Below, piece after piece: positions 5,688 through 16,836 of a stretch of 16,836 nt of DNA. Position numbers and translations under genes: made by a program. Within the stretch, counting starts at the first letter, position 1; every line of letters starts with the position of its first letter. The stretch comes from an archaeon. GTDB lineage: Archaea; Iainarchaeota; Iainarchaeia; Iainarchaeales; Iainarchaeaceae. The stretch is from NCBI GenBank assembly GCA_038046625.1, contig JBBSVV010000041.1, positions 21,424 to 38,259 on the forward strand, in the 5' to 3' direction. A model generated the notes under the pieces. That model worked only from the letters and a program-made list of their open reading frames with translations, was not told the DNA's origin and searched no databases.

Positions 5688-5856
5688 CAACCCAAATCAC
5701 CTGTGCGGTGATTTCCGTTGACGGAAAGTGTGGGCAACCCAATCCCCTAACGGGGATTCAGTTGACGGAAGGGCGGGCAACCCAATCCCCTAACGGGGAT
5801 TCAGTTGACGGAAGGGCGGGCAACCCAATCCCCTGCTGGGGGGTTTCCGTTGACGG
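5688..5856. repeat. Tandem array of four 43-47-bp palindromic units
   Basis: Units start at 5688, 5735, 5778 and 5821. Units 2 and 3 are identical (CAACCCAATCCCCTAACGGGGATTCAGTTGACGGAAGGGCGGG). Each unit folds as CAAC-NN-stem-loop-stem-NN-GTTG. The fourth is truncated at the hxlR stop codon. Confidence 0.92.
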
Positions 5857-6861: not shown

Positions 6862-7779
6862 ATGGGAGCTAATTCGTATCTCTGCATTCAGCCTCAGCGC
6901 CAGCGGGAGATAATTGCCGAACTGAAAAAACGTTCTGGTTTAACTTGGCCTAAACTGGCTGAATCGCTTAGTGTTTGCAGGAGCATGGCATTCAACTATA
7001 ATAGCGGCACTAATAGCATCCCTCTGAACAAATTTGAGAAACTCTGCAGCTTGGCAAAAGTTGAACCTGATTATTTCGGCAAATTCGAATTAAAAGAAGT
7101 GCAAAACCAACCGCACTCAATTACAGTGCCGCCTCTCGATTCCGAAGAATTGAGTGAATTTCTCGGTTTCATGGCCGGAGACGGATGCTTAACCGTGAAC
7201 TACGCAGTTGTAGTGAGTTGTGATGCAACCTCCGACAAAAGATATGTTTGGGAAGTGGTTGCTCCAAAGTTTATGCGGCTTTTCAGCCTCGCGCCAAATA
7301 TAAGAAAAATTAACCGAAACCTGCTGCAATGCAGGGTTTACTGCAAAAAACTCTTCGACTTTCTTTCAAAAGAAGCAGGTCTTCCAACAGGCCGAAAGAA
7401 AAATAAAATACGAATCCCTGAATTCATAATGCCCAACAAAACCCTAACTGCTGCTTTCCTTCGGGGTCTCTTTGACACTGACGGCGGCTTTCACAGGCAC
7501 AACCCGTTTTCCTCAAAAGTGGAATTTACAAGCTATTCTGAAAAGTTCAGGGAAGACATTGTTCAAGCCTTGATTTCGCTTGGCTTTAAACCCGTGAGCA
7601 TCAAAACACGGATTTACATAATGGCAAAGAGTGAAATCGCCAGGTTCTTTGCAACAATAAAGCCCAGCAACTTCAAGCACTGCTACAAATACGCCAAATT
7701 CCTTGAAAAAGGACAAGTGCCAAGGCACAGGGATATCGATTACAACTCTGAAGAATTTAAGAATTTTGGGTTACTATAA
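6862..7779 (+). CDS. Free-standing two-motif LAGLIDADG (DOD-type) endonuclease with N-terminal HTH
   Basis: LSEFLGFMAGDG and AAFLRGLFDTDG motifs, plus G.K...IRIPEFI. N-terminal LKKRSGLTWPKLAESLSVCRS is XRE-like HTH. No intein splicing termini. Confidence 0.9.
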   Translation: MGANSYLCIQPQRQREIIAELKKRSGLTWPKLAESLSVCRSMAFNYNSGTNSIPLNKFEKLCSLAKVEPDYFGKFELKEVQNQPHSITVPPLDSEELSEFLGFMAGDGCLTVNYAVVVSCDATSDKRYVWEVVAPKFMRLFSLAPNIRKINRNLLQCRVYCKKLFDFLSKEAGLPTGRKKNKIRIPEFIMPNKTLTAAFLRGLFDTDGGFHRHNPFSSKVEFTSYSEKFREDIVQALISLGFKPVSIKTRIYIMAKSEIARFFATIKPSNFKHCYKYAKFLEKGQVPRHRDIDYNSEEFKNFGLL

Positions 7780-7787
7780 CCTTACGT

Positions 7788-7858
7788 GCGCCTGTGGGAC
7801 AATGGTAGCCTTCGACCTTCCCAAGGTCGCGACCCGGGTTCGATTCCCGGTAGGCGCA
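7788..7858 (+). tRNA. tRNA-Gly(CCC)
   Basis: Acceptor stem GCGCCTG/TAGGCGC plus discriminator A. Anticodon arm CGACC-TTCCCAA-GGTCG. T arm CCGGG-TTCGATT-CCCGG. 71 nt, no intron, no encoded CCA, followed by TTTT. Confidence 0.96.
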
Positions 7859-10047: not shown

Positions 10048-10857
10048 ATGGATGCGCAATCAACATTGAAACTGAACAGTGGTGGCAAGATTCCTGTTCT
10101 GGGTTTCGGCACTTGGGAGCTTCGAGGCAAAGCATGCGAGAATGCAGTGAGAGCCGCAATTGAAGCCGGCTACAGGCTTATTGATACCGCTTCATTCTAC
10201 GGGAACGAAAAAGAGGTTGGCGATGCAATCGCGCAAAGCAAGGTTCCGCGTCGGGAATTGTTCATAACCACAAAGCTCTGGCCCTCCGATTTCGGCAGCG
10301 AGGAAAAGGCGCTTGAAAAGAGCCTCTCGCTTCTGCAGCTGGATTATGTCGACCTTTACCTCATTCACTGGCCGCGCAAAGGGCGCACAAATTCCTGGAC
10401 AAAATTGGCGGGAATTGCCGAATCCGGAAAAGCAAAGAGCATCGGCGTAAGCAATTTCACTATAATGCATTTGGAGGAGCTGGCAAAGGTTTCCGAAACG
10501 GTTCCGAGTGTGAACCAGGTGGAGTTCTCGCCCTTCCTTTATCAAAAGGGGCTGCTTGATTATTGCCAAAAAAAAGGGATCGCTGTCGAGGCTTATTCTC
10601 CTTTGACGCGGGGAAGGAAGCTGGACGACAAAAGGATTTCGGATATTGCGCGGAAGCATTCAAAGTCAAATGTGCAGGTAATGCTCCGTTGGCTGATTCA
10701 GCACGGCCTGGTTCCGCTCCCCAAATCTTCGCACGAAGAAAGGATTCGCGAAAACATTTCCGTTTTCGATTTTTCGTTAAGCAACGAGGAAATGAAAATC
10801 CTTGATTCCATGGATGAGGGTTTCAGGAACACTTGGAACCCGGAGCAGATGGAATAA
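10048..10857 (+). CDS. Aldo/keto reductase (2,5-diketo-D-gluconate reductase-like)
   Basis: LGFGTW; catalytic tetrad in IDTA, FYGNE, ITTK and LIHWP; IGVSNF, NQVE, AYSPL, LPKS. ATG at 10048. Confidence 0.93.
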   Translation: MDAQSTLKLNSGGKIPVLGFGTWELRGKACENAVRAAIEAGYRLIDTASFYGNEKEVGDAIAQSKVPRRELFITTKLWPSDFGSEEKALEKSLSLLQLDYVDLYLIHWPRKGRTNSWTKLAGIAESGKAKSIGVSNFTIMHLEELAKVSETVPSVNQVEFSPFLYQKGLLDYCQKKGIAVEAYSPLTRGRKLDDKRISDIARKHSKSNVQVMLRWLIQHGLVPLPKSSHEERIRENISVFDFSLSNEEMKILDSMDEGFRNTWNPEQME

Positions 10858-10861
10858 CAAA

Positions 10862-10878
10862 AACCAAAACTATAAAAA
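10862..10878 (+). promoter_or_regulatory. BRE-TATA promoter, copy 1 (AACCAAAACTATAAAAA)
   Basis: Identical 17-mer at 11384-11400. TATA starts 30 nt before ATG 10901. Confidence 0.7.
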
Positions 10879-10900
10879 TACGGGATACCTGTTCTATAGA

Positions 10901-11368
10901 ATGAAGAAGCTTTTTTTGGTTGCAGGCTTTGCGCTCCTGATTCTTGCGAGCGGCTGCATCGGCGGCAATGGCAATGACACGAATTCCGATAGGAATGGCG
11001 CTTTCGGCGGAGGGACAGGTTCTCCTTCAAATGGCAATGGTTCGGGAGGTAGTAATTCTGGTGGTGGAAGTGGTTCCGGGGAAAGTTCTTCCGGATCTGG
11101 AGGAGATTCTATTTCATCATCATGGTGTTCGGGTAATAGAGGGGCTATAGAAACATTCAAAGGCAGACAAGCTTGTCACACTTCTACTCTCTCAGGTGAG
11201 GTATATACTTTTATAATAGACAAAGACTATTGGGTAATTCAGTCTCAAGCATATAACTATGAAGCACATTTTGTAAATCGTAAATGTACAGAATTGAATT
11301 GTTTAAGTGAAAATCCACAATCATTAGCAGCGTGTGAGCAATTCAAGACCATTTATTGCCCGGCTTAA
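10901..11368 (+). CDS. Lipoprotein with Gly/Ser-rich linker and Cys-containing C-terminal domain (155 aa)
   Basis: MKKLFLVAGFALLILASGC lipobox. The GNDTNSD.NGA.GGGTG motif is shared with the next gene. Confidence 0.8.
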   Translation: MKKLFLVAGFALLILASGCIGGNGNDTNSDRNGAFGGGTGSPSNGNGSGGSNSGGGSGSGESSSGSGGDSISSSWCSGNRGAIETFKGRQACHTSTLSGEVYTFIIDKDYWVIQSQAYNYEAHFVNRKCTELNCLSENPQSLAACEQFKTIYCPA

Positions 11369-11424: not shown

Positions 11425-12600
11425 ATGAAAATACAGTTCTTATCAATTGGGCTAGTGTTAGCCGTGCTTGTGCTTTCAGGTTGCACTACTATAGGCACAG
11501 GCAACGACACAAATTCAGACATAAATGGCTTTTGGGGTTTTGGCTTTGGAAACGGAACTAATTCAGACGCAAATGGCGCAATCGGCGGCGGAACAGGATT
11601 CCCTTTTACCGGCAATGGCTCGGGCAATGGTTCCGGAAACGGCCCCGGAAACGGTTCCGGAGGGGGAAATAATGGCAGCGGCTCCGGCGGAAACAACGGT
11701 TTAGGCTATGGCGGCACCCCAAACCTTCAATGCGTGATTTGCACGAACAAGGCGGCTAACCCGCCATTCTGTAAAGGGTGCCTCAAGCTTTACGAGCTCA
11801 ATGCACAGAACCAATGTGTTCCAAGGCAATGCGGCAATGGCGCTACAAATCCGCCTCAATGTGATGTTTGCGGTTCCGGCCAGACTTGGTTCACTTACAC
11901 TTACCGCAGTTATGCTCAAGGCAACTTTAAGACCGGCGAGGGCTCTGGGCAGTATCTTTTCTCCGAGGATTTCGCGGAGCACCAAAAAAATCCCATAAAC
12001 GGCCCAAGCTTCAATGAGGAAGGCCTGATATTCAACTTAGGAGACGGCAGGGATTATTACGGTGAGTGTAAGCCTGGCCCTTCCGATTGTGCGAACGGAG
12101 CAATCAATTCGCCTTTCTGTGACATCTGCCCCGCCGGCCAGACGGATGAGGGCAATTATCCAAACCGCAATTGCATGTCGAGTTGCGCTGCTGCCACAGA
12201 AGAGAGCTGCAGCATTTCGATAGAGTTCAACAACAAGTATTTGCCTGCTGTTAATGAAGTGCTCAAATACAAGAGCAAGAAAACTTCGTTTTTAGTTAGT
12301 TCAGGTAATGGGAAGTATTACAAGGCTTCCGAATTCCCTTCTCAGGATGGTTTCCCGCCGCAGGGTTGTGAATTCGAGGCACTTCACGTTCCATCATGTA
12401 TTCCTGAAATTCCGGCAAGCATTCTTAACGCGTATCCCGCAGAAATGAGGGAAAAATTCCATCCTGAATTCGTCCAGAGAGTGGGTCCAATCCAGGAACC
12501 TTATTACTATACGACTGCAAGCCCGAAGGTTCAGGCCTGCATGGAAGAGCTGCGCAACAGGCTGAGCAAAATAACAGGGCAACCATTTCCCTCAACTTAA
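11425..12600 (+). CDS. Surface lipoprotein with Gly/Asn linker and three CxNxAxNxPxCxxC repeats (391 aa)
   Basis: VLSGC lipobox. Repeats CTNKAANPPFCKGC, CGNGATNPPQCDVC and CANGAINSPFCDIC. Followed by a T8 tract (12601-12608). Confidence 0.85.
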   Translation: MKIQFLSIGLVLAVLVLSGCTTIGTGNDTNSDINGFWGFGFGNGTNSDANGAIGGGTGFPFTGNGSGNGSGNGPGNGSGGGNNGSGSGGNNGLGYGGTPNLQCVICTNKAANPPFCKGCLKLYELNAQNQCVPRQCGNGATNPPQCDVCGSGQTWFTYTYRSYAQGNFKTGEGSGQYLFSEDFAEHQKNPINGPSFNEEGLIFNLGDGRDYYGECKPGPSDCANGAINSPFCDICPAGQTDEGNYPNRNCMSSCAAATEESCSISIEFNNKYLPAVNEVLKYKSKKTSFLVSSGNGKYYKASEFPSQDGFPPQGCEFEALHVPSCIPEIPASILNAYPAEMREKFHPEFVQRVGPIQEPYYYTTASPKVQACMEELRNRLSKITGQPFPST

Positions 12601-12735: not shown

Positions 12736-12839
12736 AAGTAAAAGTATAAGACCACCAAAACTTTATTGTAATTGAATGAAAACAGGAATTTTGCTGGCCG
12801 TGGTTTTGCTTCTTGCGCTTCACGAAAAATTTGTTCAGT

Positions 12840-12978
12840 TATAGCAGACCACAAAAGTTTTTCGGCATTTATGGTGGTCTGCTAGATAGCACCTGGTGCC
12901 CAATGGGTACTAGGCCTCGTCCCCGTAGGGGGCAAGGAACCATGAAAATCCACCGAATTACTTTATCGGTTTGCTATA
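12840..12978. mobile_element. Twin-hairpin MITE-like repeat, copy A (139 bp including a 46-bp internal insertion)
   Basis: Termini TATAGCAGACC...GGTTTGCTATA. The first 52 nt match copy B (16406-16457) at 49 positions. It overlaps the last codons of pgk. The repeat itself is directly visible; mobility is inferred. Confidence 0.65.
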
Positions 12979-14196
12979 ATTCTTTTCAAGTATTTCAAGC
13001 CCCGGCAATGGTTCCCCTGAAAGGAACTGCAGGAGCGCTTTTCCCGCGAGTGAAACGAAACTAAAGTCCTGCGCAACCAAACCAAAAGAAGTCAAAGCCT
13101 TTTCCGTGTCACCGCCTCCGATGATTGAGTAACAACGATGGAATGCGATTGCTTCCAAAACTTTTTTGGTGCCTACTGCAAAGGCCTTCTTTTCATACAC
13201 CCCCATGGGGCCATTGAAAACAACAACACTGGCGCCCCTAATATGCTCTTTGAAGAGTTCGCTTGTTTCCCTTCCAATGTCCATTGTGTCGAATTTTGAC
13301 GGCAATTCTTTCAACTGGGCTTCTTTTCTCTTGCCGCTATCCCTGGGTTCCTCAATCCCGAAGTCTTTTGCAAGGATAAGTTTTGCGCTGTGCTTTTTGA
13401 GTATTTCCCTTGCCTTGGGCAAGAGCTTGTCAAAGCCCTTTTCCCTGAAGAATTTTTCCTTTGCCCCGAAATCAACGCCCTGCGCCTTCAAAAAAAGTTC
13501 CCCGAACAGGCCTCCAACACATGCCTTGTTGCACAAATTGTTATCCAGCATGCCCTCAAGTAGCGATACCGAATCCGATAATTTTGCCCCGCCCAAAACA
13601 ACGAGCCTGTTTCCGCTGCCCTTGCCGTTCAGTTTATCGAGTGCCTCGAGTTCCCTCTGCAATTGGGGGCCCACCACACAAGGCATGTATTTTTTGAACC
13701 CAACAACTGATGAGTGCGGCCTGTGGCAAACGCTTAGGGCATCCTGCACGAACAGGTCTCCGAGTGGCCCGAGCTTTTTTATTACGGGGTCGTTCGCGTG
13801 CTCTTCCGGTGTTTTATCTTCCTGCTCTTCCTTTATGAAGCGAGTGTTGTCCAAAACAACAATGTCGCCGTTCTCCATGTTTTTTATTTCCGAAACATAA
13901 TCCGCTTCCCACTTCACGAACTTAACAGGCCTGTCAACGAACTTTTTTATGAAATCCGCGTGCCTCTTGAGTTCGATGAATTCCTCTTCGCCCGGCCTGC
14001 CCTGGTGCGAGAGCACAACAACTTTTGCTCCCTCCTCACTCAAAGCATAAATGGTTTTCGAGTGCTCGCGCAGCCTCGAAGAAATTACAACCCTGCCTTC
14101 AACAACGGAGCTGTTCAAATCGGCCCTCAGGAAAACCGTTTTTCCCTTCAAGGGGTAATCGAAAACATTTTTGTATTCCACTTTTGCCCACCGCAT
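12958..14196 (-). CDS. pgk: Phosphoglycerate kinase (archaeal type)
   Basis: RADLNS, SHQGRPG, DNTRF, HR, LGGAKLSD, DIG, NGPMGVYE, GGGDT, LPGLE. An alternative GTG start lies at 14181. Confidence 0.95.
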   Translation of the reverse strand: MRWAKVEYKNVFDYPLKGKTVFLRADLNSSVVEGRVVISSRLREHSKTIYALSEEGAKVVVLSHQGRPGEEEFIELKRHADFIKKFVDRPVKFVKWEADYVSEIKNMENGDIVVLDNTRFIKEEQEDKTPEEHANDPVIKKLGPLGDLFVQDALSVCHRPHSSVVGFKKYMPCVVGPQLQRELEALDKLNGKGSGNRLVVLGGAKLSDSVSLLEGMLDNNLCNKACVGGLFGELFLKAQGVDFGAKEKFFREKGFDKLLPKAREILKKHSAKLILAKDFGIEEPRDSGKRKEAQLKELPSKFDTMDIGRETSELFKEHIRGASVVVFNGPMGVYEKKAFAVGTKKVLEAIAFHRCYSIIGGGDTEKALTSFGLVAQDFSFVSLAGKALLQFLSGEPLPGLEILEKNYSKPIK

Positions 14197-14243
14197 TGAT
14201 TATGCGGGCTAATTAATAAATATATAATTGCTCTAGTCTTTAC

Positions 14244-15005
14244 ATGCCGTTGGTCGACCTGAAGGGGAAAATTGGCCTGCCTTTGAAACTGAACGGCTCA
14301 AAGCTCGTTTTCGGCAAAGGAATGAAGGAAACTGCAGTTGACACAAGGGTACGCGAAAGGATGCTTCCCGTGCTCAAAAACCCCTCTTCTTCCGCACCAA
14401 GCGGGTTCTATTACATGTACCGCGATGTTTGCCTTGAAAAGGATCGCGCAAAAATAAGGGCAAACAACCTGCGCTTTGACATCACAATCCTCCCCCCATT
14501 CAAGGTCGGGGACGAGTACAACAAAACTTTTGGGCATTTCCACCCAAAAGTGCAGGGTACAAACACTTGGTACCCCGAGCTTTACGAGGTAGTTCACGGC
14601 CACGCCCACTATCTATTGCAGAACGGTTCCGAATTTTTGGTTTTCGATGCGAGGCCGGGAGATAAATGTTTGATGATTCCCGGTTTTGCGCATATTACAG
14701 TGAATCCCTCGCTTTCCGAAACCCTTGTAATGGCGAACTGGGTTTACCCGGGCTTCAATTCCGATTACGCGCCGATTGAAAAAAACGGCGGCGCGGAGTG
14801 GTTCGAAACAACCCAAGGTTTTGTTCCGAACACAAAATATTCAAAAAATACGCCCGTGAAAATAATTTCTCCGCGCGAATTCAGCGAATTCGGAATCACG
14901 AAAAAGCCCATGTACCCCGAGGCAATGAAGGCGCCGAAGAAATTTGCGTGGCTTTCCAAGCCGCAGGATTTTTCTTCCAAATTTTCCAAATACCTGACGC
15001 AATAA
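14244..15005 (+). CDS. pgi: Cupin-type glucose-6-phosphate isomerase family protein
   Basis: YYMYRD, LRFDITILPP, KTFGHFH, PELYEV..G, PGFAHITVN, with cupin metal ligands H-H-E-H. Divergent from pgk across a 47-nt AT-rich spacer. Confidence 0.85.
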   Translation: MPLVDLKGKIGLPLKLNGSKLVFGKGMKETAVDTRVRERMLPVLKNPSSSAPSGFYYMYRDVCLEKDRAKIRANNLRFDITILPPFKVGDEYNKTFGHFHPKVQGTNTWYPELYEVVHGHAHYLLQNGSEFLVFDARPGDKCLMIPGFAHITVNPSLSETLVMANWVYPGFNSDYAPIEKNGGAEWFETTQGFVPNTKYSKNTPVKIISPREFSEFGITKKPMYPEAMKAPKKFAWLSKPQDFSSKFSKYLTQ

Positions 15006-15021
15006 ATGCTCAATTGCTTAT

Positions 15022-15156
15022 TTGGCAATCTTTAATAAGTTCGGGAAACAACCCGGGAAATACTATTTTCAGAAAAAGTTTTCCGCAGGCAAAATAGAGG
15101 TAGTATGTGAGAAAACTGGCAATAATTTAAAAGTAATAACGGTGTATTGGTGTTGA
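15022..15156 (+). pseudogene. 5'-truncated DUF4258-like (RelE/BrnT-fold) toxin relic
   Basis: Frame 1 reads ...GKYYFQKKFSAGKIEVVCEKTGNNLKVITVYWC*, ending 1 nt before the DUF2283 ATG. An in-frame stop at 14995-14997 leaves no room for the HA..R...R N-terminal half. Confidence 0.6.
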
Positions 15157-15157
15157 T

Positions 15158-15376
15158 ATGGATATAAGCTACGACAAGGAAGCTGATGCTCTTTACATAC
15201 GCTTCAGGAAAAAAGGGGCATTTTCAAAAAACAAAAAAATAGATCGGTCTACAATTGCGGACTTGGATGAAAACGGAAATGTTTTGGGAATAGAGCTTTT
15301 GGATGTCAGTAAGAGGTTCCCGGCTAAAGCAATTTCCGAGATTAACGTGAAAAACCTTGTTGTGACGGCAAAATAG
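15158..15376 (+). CDS. DUF2283-family protein (putative antitoxin)
   Basis: ISYDKEADALYIRF...IADLDENGNVLGIELLDVSK signature. 72 aa. Confidence 0.88.
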   Translation: MDISYDKEADALYIRFRKKGAFSKNKKIDRSTIADLDENGNVLGIELLDVSKRFPAKAISEINVKNLVVTAK

Positions 15377-15389
15377 ATGTTAAAACTTT

Positions 15390-16379
15390 TCAAATTTTCA
15401 GCTGCTTCACCAAATCAACGCAGCGCTGCGAGTATCCAAGCTCATTGTCATACCACGCAACCACTTGAACCAAATTTCCGCCGATTACTTTTGTGAGCTG
15501 CGAATCAAAAATGCTTGAGGCCTTGTTTCCGATGATGTCGCTTGAAACAAGGGGCTCGTCAGAGTATTCCAGGATTCCGCGGAGTTTTCCTTTCGAGGCC
15601 TCGTACATCGCCATGTTGATTTCCTTTACACTAGTTTCCTTTTCAAGCTCGGCCGTCACTTCAAGCAGCGAACCATCAGCCACAGGAACCCTGATTGCTT
15701 TTCCATCAATCCTTCCCTTCAAAGCAGGCATGACTTTTCCCGTTGCCTCGGAGGCTCCGCTCGTGGTTGGTATGATGTTCAGCGCCGCCGATCTCGCACG
15801 CCTCTCATCCTTGTGCGTTCCGTCAATAAGGTTCTGGTCTGCTGTGTAAGCGTGAATGGTTGTCATGAATGCCCTTTTGATTCCGAATTTTTCCTGCAGA
15901 ACCTTCATTACCGGCATTAAGCAGTTCGTTGTGCAGGAAGCATTGTCAATTATGTCCGCGCTCTTCTGCATGTTTGCCGTGTTCACGCCGAGCACGTAGC
16001 TCTCAATGTCGCCTTTTGCGGGCGCGGATATGATTACTTTTTTTGCGCCCGCTTTCAAATGCCCGCCTGCATCGTCCTTTCCGCGGAAAACGCCCGTGCT
16101 TTCAATAACCACATCAACGCCCAATTGTTTCCAGGGCAATTCTTCCGGCTTTACGCGTTGTGAAAGCACTTTCACTTTCTTTCCGTCAACAATGAGGTTG
16201 TCTCCCTGTGCCTCTATTGTTCCCACGAATTTCCCGTGCACTGAATCGTATTTGAACAAATGCAGCGCGCTGTTTATTCCGTCAGGGTGGTTGATTACCC
16301 ATTCAATGTTTTTCTCATTTATCCCGCACCTCAGAATAAGCCTTCCAATCCTTCCAAAACCGTTGATTGCAACCTTCAA
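15390..16379 (-). CDS. gap: Class I (bacterial-type) glyceraldehyde-3-phosphate dehydrogenase (329 aa)
   Basis: KVAINGFGRIGR, YDSVHG, ESTG, ASCTTNC, HAYT, NIIPTTSGA, RVP, WYDNE. TTG start at 16379 with GGAGGGG RBS (16386-16392). Confidence 0.96.
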   Translation of the reverse strand: MKVAINGFGRIGRLILRCGINEKNIEWVINHPDGINSALHLFKYDSVHGKFVGTIEAQGDNLIVDGKKVKVLSQRVKPEELPWKQLGVDVVIESTGVFRGKDDAGGHLKAGAKKVIISAPAKGDIESYVLGVNTANMQKSADIIDNASCTTNCLMPVMKVLQEKFGIKRAFMTTIHAYTADQNLIDGTHKDERRARSAALNIIPTTSGASEATGKVMPALKGRIDGKAIRVPVADGSLLEVTAELEKETSVKEINMAMYEASKGKLRGILEYSDEPLVSSDIIGNKASSIFDSQLTKVIGGNLVQVVAWYDNELGYSQRCVDLVKQLKI

Positions 16380-16405
16380 GCCAAACCCCTCCAAAATGAT
16401 GAAAC

Positions 16406-16497
16406 TATAGCAAACCACGAAAGTTTTTCGGCATTTATGGTGGTTTGCTAGATAGCAGACCAAAAATGCCGCCAAAATATTTTATTGGTCTGCTATA
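16406..16497. mobile_element. Twin-hairpin MITE-like repeat, copy B (92 bp)
   Basis: TATAGCAAACCAC...GTGGTTTGCTA-GA-TAGCAGACCAA...TTGGTCTGCTATA, giving two 11-bp stems. Direct repeat of copy A, immediately upstream of the gap RBS. Mobility is inferred. Confidence 0.65.
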
Positions 16498-16520
16498 ATA
16501 TGAATAAAGAAAATTTAAAC

Positions 16521-16550
16521 GTTGGGCTTGCCCGGCAGGGGGGGCCCAGC
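16521..16550. terminator. GC-rich hairpin directly after the stop codon of the last gene
   Basis: GTTGGGCTTGCCC-GGCA-GGGGGGGCCCAGC is an imperfect stem. On the minus strand it is followed by T-rich TTTAAATTTTCTTT. Confidence 0.4.
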
Positions 16551-16551
16551 A

Positions 16552-16836
16552 TCAGGATTTTATCACGCGCACGTTGTCGAAGGAAGTGGTTACGGGATTG
16601 TGCGCGTCATTATAGCCGATGCCCATGGCAACATGGACTTTGCTGACTGCTTGCGGAACAACAAAAGTGACTGTCTTTTTGGCCCACTCGCTTTCCCAGC
16701 CTTCAATAAAGCTTTGGTGATTGTAGTCATCGCTTGCAATCCCTGCATAGTAAGTGTTTCCGGAAGTTCCGGACTTTCCAAGGAAAGTCAAAGTTACAGT
16801 GTTTCCGGGGGAAACGTCAATGCTGTTGGAGTAAAT
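16552..16836 (-). CDS. 3' end of a protein with a CBM4/9-like beta-sandwich (partial, enters from right edge)
   Basis: Frame is open from 16836: IDVSPGNTVTLTFLGKS...SEWAKKTVTFVVP...TSFDNVRV*. The V.PG, W...T.TF and FDNV pattern is typical of carbohydrate-binding jelly-roll modules. Confidence 0.6.
   Translation of the reverse strand: MYSNSIDVSPGNTVTLTFLGKSGTSGNTYYAGIASDDYNHQSFIEGWESEWAKKTVTFVVPQAVSKVHVAMGIGYNDAHNPVTTSFDNVRVIKS

Follow-up and report, generated by a model that had tools for sequence, protein, structure and literature searches.

Among prokaryotic MITEs (transposable elements of the miniature inverted-repeat kind), Correia and RUP duplicate a TA dinucleotide on insertion. Table 1 of PMC2577343 gives IS630 a 2-bp duplication at a CTAG target and Tc1 a preference for CAYATATRTG, and ISY100 is described in PMC2170065 as duplicating TA and requiring ~24-bp ends. 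In archaea, 19 MITE-like families without known partner have been reported for 30 genomes (PMC3852290), and DPANN genomes can be MITE-rich according to PMC11602168. Here we analyse a stretch of 16,836 nt from an archaeon of the Iainarchaeaceae (the window; assembly GCA_038046625.1, contig JBBSVV010000041.1, positions 21,424 to 38,259), in which a block of the genes pgk, pgi and gap lies between two copies, A and B, of a twin-hairpin element. The element is dispersed, duplicates TA on insertion, lies in either orientation and turns over between sister species. That it is mobile, and that A and B are independent insertions, is almost certain. The two copies are probably insertions of a ~89-bp MITE that is non-autonomous and depends on an IS630/Tc1-mariner-type transposase acting in trans.

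A dispersed TA-flanked element family

Copy A (positions 12840..12978, forward strand) spans 139 nt with both flanking TAs, or 93 nt minus a 46-nt insert, the element proper lying at 12842-12976. It is ordered as TA, a 43-nt hairpin, GA, a second hairpin interrupted by the insert, and TA. The left half (12842..12884, forward strand) folds into an 11-bp stem and a 21-nt loop that carries the conserved end motif AAAG-T-NN-TTCGG, and is followed by the central GA spacer (12885..12886, forward strand), which measures 2 nt in 54 of the 74 distinct dimers retained for stem analyses. Copy B (16406..16497, forward strand; 92 nt with both TAs) has no insert and comprises a left half (16408-16450), GA (16451-16452) and a right half (16453-16495). 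These coordinates and lengths, and the twin hairpins joined by GA, had been noted in an earlier sequence-only reading of the window and are borne out by re-reading the sequence. The same holds for its comparison of the two copies: over the left 52 nt, 49 positions are identical and three differ (8, G/A; 14, A/G; 40, C/T), positions 8 and 40 forming one compensatory pair, and the right halves show the opposite swap (A..T in copy A, G..C in copy B). Folding z-scores of the copies range from -4.8 to -9.2 (four strands tested). The build is unusual in that each half keeps its own 11-bp hairpin through compensatory change.

Profile searches with nhmmer of the contigs of the genome under study (G000; 986 kb, 84.6% complete) and of a same-genus sister genome (G001; 93.2% identity with G000 over 707 kb) found 32 and 35 loci, respectively, and none in the reversed G000 sequence that served as control; a motif census of G000 gave 33 clusters. 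BLAST matches occur in 13 of 22 family relatives, and pattern searches returned matches in 15-16 of 215 class genomes, in 38 stretches of a species collection (many from Ca. Iainarchaeum andersonii, some from other DPANN) and in 63 stretches of a metagenome collection, including diverged subfamilies; this distribution suggests an Iainarchaeota (DPANN) host. The genomes used are incomplete assemblies, from which repeats often drop out. With the dimer search set to 88-97 nt, 85 dimer loci were collected (89-95 nt with both TAs, 93 nt in 54 of them), compared with seven listed monomers; the twin units stand in inverted orientation, mostly as doublets. Both ends share an imperfect ~26-bp motif, TA|TAG-N-ACC-N3-AAAR-T-N2-TTCGG, the conservation figures of which are inflated because the copies were selected by that motif. 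Neighbours of the other copies are unrelated genes, the 23 gaps surveyed in G000 being tandem (11), divergent (8) or convergent (4), and an open frame runs into the element's TA, with TAA or TAG beyond it, in 6 of 23 G000 copies and 5 of 27 G001 copies. Viral contigs gave two junction-only matches and one end-pattern match, with no full element among those inspected. Five metagenome stretches (L206, L207, L208, L217 and L222) share the left end, beyond which a longer GC-rich sequence follows and no right end is close by; most of them lie at the ends of contigs.

Movement of the element is documented by empty sites. Full elements were compared between the two genomes, and both flanks could be located in the other genome for 14 of the 23 in G000 and 17 of the 27 in G001. 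Of these 31 comparisons, eight show a clean single TA opposite TA-element-TA, providing the empty orthologous sites that the sequence-only reading had proposed to look for in relatives. One further site carries TC, at one the element is inverted between the two genomes, at one a monomer stands opposite a dimer, and one differs by the insert only. The remaining sites were shared, untidy or matched via a paralogous repeat and were not counted; C7, C39:908, L140 and L115 were excluded from the eight since they were matched via a paralogous host repeat. Inside G000, a host repeat occurs in filled and empty form, the filled form being longer by the element and one TA. From the eight orthologous empty sites of other copies, the TAs at 12840-12841 and 12977-12978 would represent the target duplication of copy A. 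Flanks of 84 insertion sites reveal a symmetric, palindromic target preference, (A)RY-TA-RY(T), with YTAR at 60 of 84 sites versus 28% of G000 intergenic TAs and RYTARY at 31 of 84 versus a background of 6%. Single-hairpin copies can arise by deletion between internal direct repeats. The element has the features of a MITE, being short, non-coding and multi-copy, with terminal inverted repeats and a target-site duplication evident from empty sites, except that no autonomous partner with the same ends was found. The earlier suggestion of an apparently undescribed archaeal family of TA-flanked, MITE-like elements agrees with its multiple copies, TA duplication and local hairpins; a literature search found no description of it, with the qualification that the supplement to an archaeal MITE list (PMC11602168) may include it unnamed. 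Near the 3′ end of an NAD synthase gene, the window also contains an empty site (2666-2669) at which G001 holds an element (L154:12393).

Twin hairpins and the mode of movement

At the variable stem position, local pairing is seen in 71 and 73 of 74 halves, and end-to-end pairing in 22 of 74. Covariation was tested on 44 of the 74 distinct dimers, the most diverged subfamily being excluded, against 500 shuffles, in a test that related copies inflate. For the twin-hairpin structure, 14 of 21 pairs show changes on both sides (79 cells, a value reached by 0 of 500 shuffles), and the end-to-end structure shows no covariation (6 cells; 500 of 500 shuffles as high). Energies computed for DNA favour the twin hairpins in 67 and 63 of 74 dimers. 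Folded as RNA, however, both window copies have an end-to-end structure as their energy minimum, so that the preference of the sequence-only reading for local hairpins stands for covariation and DNA energies but not for the RNA fold. Stem mismatches are balanced (G-T 26/26, A-C 17/14), which argues that neither element strand is favoured as RNA; as copies lie either way round in transcripts, this balance is compatible with selection in host mRNA. An excess of inner-arm mismatches (63 versus 25) was discarded after it disappeared in an unbiased G000 and G001 set (10 versus 14), monomer discordance (3 of 7) involves too few cases to be weighed alone, and the heterotypic halves (20 of 22) may reflect two sub-lineages rather than selection.

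Movement of the element is probably due to a DDE transposase of the IS630/Tc1-mariner type that was provided in trans and is now lost or missing from the assembly. Such an enzyme would bind the two ~26-bp ends, excise the dimer and insert it at a staggered TA. The simplest origin of the dimer would be the inverted joining of two ~43-bp one-ended units, strong ends outward. The match of each inner 11-bp arm with the outer arm in its own half may have been maintained by template-switch repair of short hairpins or, alternatively, by selection against a long end-to-end fold.

The sequence-only reading had linked the element to IS630, a link that the TA duplication and target motif sustain but for which no cognate transposase with matching ends was found. 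As it had noted, the window holds no transposase, none being detected by Pfam among the 26 window open reading frames (ORFs) scanned out of 104 listed. G000 has no match to DDE_3, Y1, IS4/5, rve, IS1595, IS110 or reverse transcriptase, and its tyrosine recombinase match is single-copy. Across five copy-rich genomes, DDE_Tnp_1, DDE_Tnp_4, rve, RVT_1, IS1595, HTH_32 and IS110 were matched in G001 only or in none, and the G001 transposase ends inspected differ from those of the element. HTH_Tnp_IS630 gave a match in 1 of 61, belonging to another family, and viral contigs yielded no IS630 relative. Both ends of the IS630 elements of two class genomes, G019 and G173, start with TA|TAG, as the element's ends do, and diverge from them inward. 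Unpaired end matches that were inspected proved to be insert-bearing or decayed copies with no recognisable transposase beside them (ORFs judged by eye).

Several observations weigh against an IS630/Tc1-mariner-type mover. DDE_3 matches are found in none (0/1) of the element's own genome and in 5 of 215 class genomes, and no autonomous element with the ends of the studied one was found; the copy-rich genomes G008 and G003 have no DDE_3 match, and G001 has two IS630 copies whose ends are of another kind. In register, the closest likeness is 16 of 26 positions, to an IS630 end in an element-free genome, out of 50 comparisons of AT-rich sequence. Several insertions lie at the central TA of another hairpin repeat and do not fit YTAR, and sequence alone cannot separate a duplicated TA from a core dinucleotide common to element and target. 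For copies A and B themselves no orthologous empty site is available, since neither gap nor pgk was matched in G001. A double-strand DDE mechanism needs no local hairpins, yet the hairpins covary, and RNA energies of the two folds are about equal (twin hairpins win in 39 and 41 of 74).

A second ~90-bp twin-hairpin repeat (TATC...GATA, GC, TATC...GATA) has a central TA that is repeatedly hit by the studied element. In G000 it is located at C36:2346-2435, C51:2079, C57:2642 and 6572, C4:9066 and C48:6970, and on C7, C39 and C16. This family duplicates TWA, an exact 3-bp difference with both flanks fully placed being observed in 6 of 20 copies compared, and forms 441 of 456 local pairs versus 389 of 456 end-to-end. 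TWA duplication is reminiscent of IS5/PIF-Harbinger elements. One end of this family (L140:14627-14656) matches the IS630 ends of G019 and G173 (L176, L264) in register at 18-19 of 26 positions, in AT-rich sequence; those elements appear TA-flanked. A third twin hairpin, 52 bp long and TA-flanked, lies at C16:15290-15343 in G000, at a site where G001 holds the studied element.

These repeats bear on the idea that movement is instead guided by structure, through an enzyme that reads the hairpin or double cruciform (a REPIN/RAYT-like HUH nuclease or an unknown host enzyme), TA being a shared core. We regard this as unlikely, although it would account for the covariation of the local stems and not of the end-to-end pairs, for the lower DNA energy of the twin hairpins, for the same build in an unrelated family and for the presence of the third twin hairpin at one of the same TA sites; REPINs as described in PMC3116915 likewise have the doublet as mobile unit and singlets as remnants. 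Against it, Y1_Tnp has no match in G000 (0/1) or in the copy-rich G003, G008 and G011, no element flanks the seven Y1 genes inspected, and the REPIN assignment fails on the partner, with no RAYT/Y1 gene flanked by repeats among those inspected. The symmetry of the ends and the palindromic target are what a DDE dimer would be expected to use, and the shuffle test is inflated as stated above. Template switching, moreover, can create and maintain such stems without function, as set out in PMC8794818, so that covariation alone is not evidence of a structure-reading enzyme. The 3-bp duplication of the second family at its empty sites points to a staggered-cut enzyme other than the TA one; the different duplications thus argue for different enzymes of this kind and a host- or replication-imposed shape, while the shape common to both families keeps the single-enzyme idea alive. 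In a broader and more doubtful version, Iainarchaeota would carry ~90-bp ‘palindrome of palindromes' elements whose twin-hairpin shape, and not only their end sequence, licenses movement, unrelated families (TA, TWA, none) converging on this shape and inserting into one another by means of a structure-reading recombinase outside the transposase families searched.

Insertions at the pgk–pgi–gap block

The bracketing of pgk, pgi and gap by copies A and B is due to chance. Six adjacent element pairs at most 3.6 kb apart are observed in G000 versus 3.3 expected for 32 copies placed at random intergenic TAs (P=0.10), and at least one such pair occurs in 97.6% of 5000 random placements. The sequence-only reading had itself allowed that very many copies would make the bracketing coincidental, and G000 holds 32 loci. 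The block is conserved vertically, and A and B were inserted into it independently: gap is present in 17 and pgk in 19 of the 22 family relatives, mostly adjacent and with pgi in the same order, and a profile search of 37 relative loci (17 gap, 20 pgk) found no element. The comparison of synteny that had been proposed thus finds the order kept in relatives without an element at either end.

Pfam assigns the enclosed genes to PGK, GPI, DUF2283 and GAPDH, in line with the earlier gene names. They comprise pgk (12958..14196, reverse strand), the cupin-type pgi (14244..15005, forward strand), which is part of the vertically conserved block, a DUF2283 small protein (15158..15376, forward strand), not found by tblastn in the gap and pgk loci of relatives, and gap (15390..16379, reverse strand), for which alignment with relatives suggests a TTG start at 16379. 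A short frame upstream of the DUF2283 gene (15030-15376) may be a relic partner.

Copy A sits in the TA of the former TAA stop of pgk. The gene stops ~6 residues sooner in relatives; in the window its frame now enters the element and stops at an internal TAA (12958-12960), adding YSKPIK, and the ancestral TAA is restored by the duplicated TA at 12839-12841, on the far side of the copy. Copy A may have survived through having hit the TA of a stop codon while bringing a replacement stop six codons further along. Copy B separates the TATA box of gap from the ribosome-binding region and lies 22 nt past the TTTAAATT box (16512..16519, reverse strand), the TATA function of which is suggested by its position and conservation. 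The distance from the TTTAAATT box to the gap anchor codon is 140 nt with copy B and 50 nt without it; in relatives it is 45-58 nt in 14 of 17 cases and 75 nt in one, the motif being missing in two. These distances and the position of copy B suggest that it inserted near the point where gap transcription starts and is now expected to be part of a long, structured leader. Copy B would lengthen the leader by ~90 nt, with a change in gap expression as a possible by-product.

The sequence-only reading had proposed that the elements mobilised the glycolytic genes as a composite unit or had been co-opted to co-regulate gap and pgk. Neither proposal finds support, since relatives keep the block without an element at either end. 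Transport of pgk–pgi–gap by a composite transposon made up of A and B is hardly credible, even though two direct copies 3.6 kb apart flank three pathway genes: the enclosed genes are neither absent nor displaced in family relatives, which have the same gene order; copy A breaks pgk's own stop and copy B parts gap from its promoter, which would leave the enclosed unit without one; the copies belong to different sub-lineages; and their spacing is within chance expectation. Contigs from four of nine read runs, with ~10-25-fold depth on the copies in two runs, contained no clean joint from which A, B or the whole block was missing, which adds weakly to this argument. A low-depth joint (16386-16558) with unknown letters between may come from a relative and was not counted. 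Very unlikely, too, is co-option as a regulatory RNA or DNA site acting in the gap 5′ leader and at the pgk 3′ end. Copy B should be transcribed as a structured leader, the 3′ end of pgk is formed by copy A, and the stems covary; the element is nevertheless missing from every one of the relatives' 17 gap and 20 pgk loci, other copies neighbour genes of every kind, in gaps that are tandem, divergent or convergent, G-U shows no strand bias, and element sites turn over between sister species. An Rfam 15 covariance-model scan of the window returned four matches at E<=5, none overlapping copy A or B.

Other repeats and likeness to known systems

The 46-nt insert of copy A (12892..12937, no strand assigned) is a GC-rich double hairpin (CC...GG) of a separate repeat family. 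It enters between TAGCA and AACC without duplication, and at the site of another copy the two sister genomes differ in whether they carry it (C39:14586 versus L143:3604). Members also occur outside the studied element, for example at C3:38312, C5:33430, C13:14497, C48:9608 and C53:4005. Elsewhere in the window, ~43-nt units that each contain a short GC hairpin and end in GTTGACGG are repeated in tandem between ferredoxin and HxlR genes (5692-5856); an ORF with a LAGLIDADG domain (6862-7779) ends 8 nt before a tRNA gene (7788-7858); and two predicted secreted proteins rich in Gly and Asn (10802-11368 and 11425-12600) have a common diverged 83-nt repeat and no Pfam match.

A ~1-Mb DPANN genome, of a type usually deemed streamlined, is thus host to MITEs in active turnover, which reshape the ends and leaders of genes, in this case the C terminus of pgk and the 5′ leader of gap. 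A caution follows for the reading of structure, strong covariation being in this case a mark of mobile DNA and not of regulatory RNA. Were shape rather than sequence to license movement, an unknown mobilising enzyme would be implied.

Archaeal MITEs, such as Sulfolobus SM elements and orphan MITE-like repeats, resemble the element in being multi-copy and non-autonomous with inverted ends; no Iainarchaeota family is named in the main texts consulted, and a supplement may list the sequence unnamed. REPINs and BIMEs, in the account of PMC3116915, have two inverted palindromic units as the mobile form, remnant-like single units and other elements nested within them. The element differs from these by the lack of a RAYT/Y1 gene beside any copy examined, by its exact TA duplication and by AT-rich loops of 20-25 nt that carry a conserved motif. 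With IS630/Tc1-mariner partners (ISY100, IS630) it has in common TA duplication, ~26-bp inverted ends and a palindromic YTAR target, as far as PMC2170065 and Table 1 of PMC2577343 describe them. The TA-duplicating prokaryotic MITEs (enterobacterial RU/ERIC, MITEEc1) are alike in being short, non-coding and intergenic and, as PMC2759123 describes, in landing in stop codons so that C termini are extended. Unlike them, the element has no sequence match to a partner, its end-to-end pairing does not covary, and each half is a covarying hairpin, in a host that is a DPANN archaeon.

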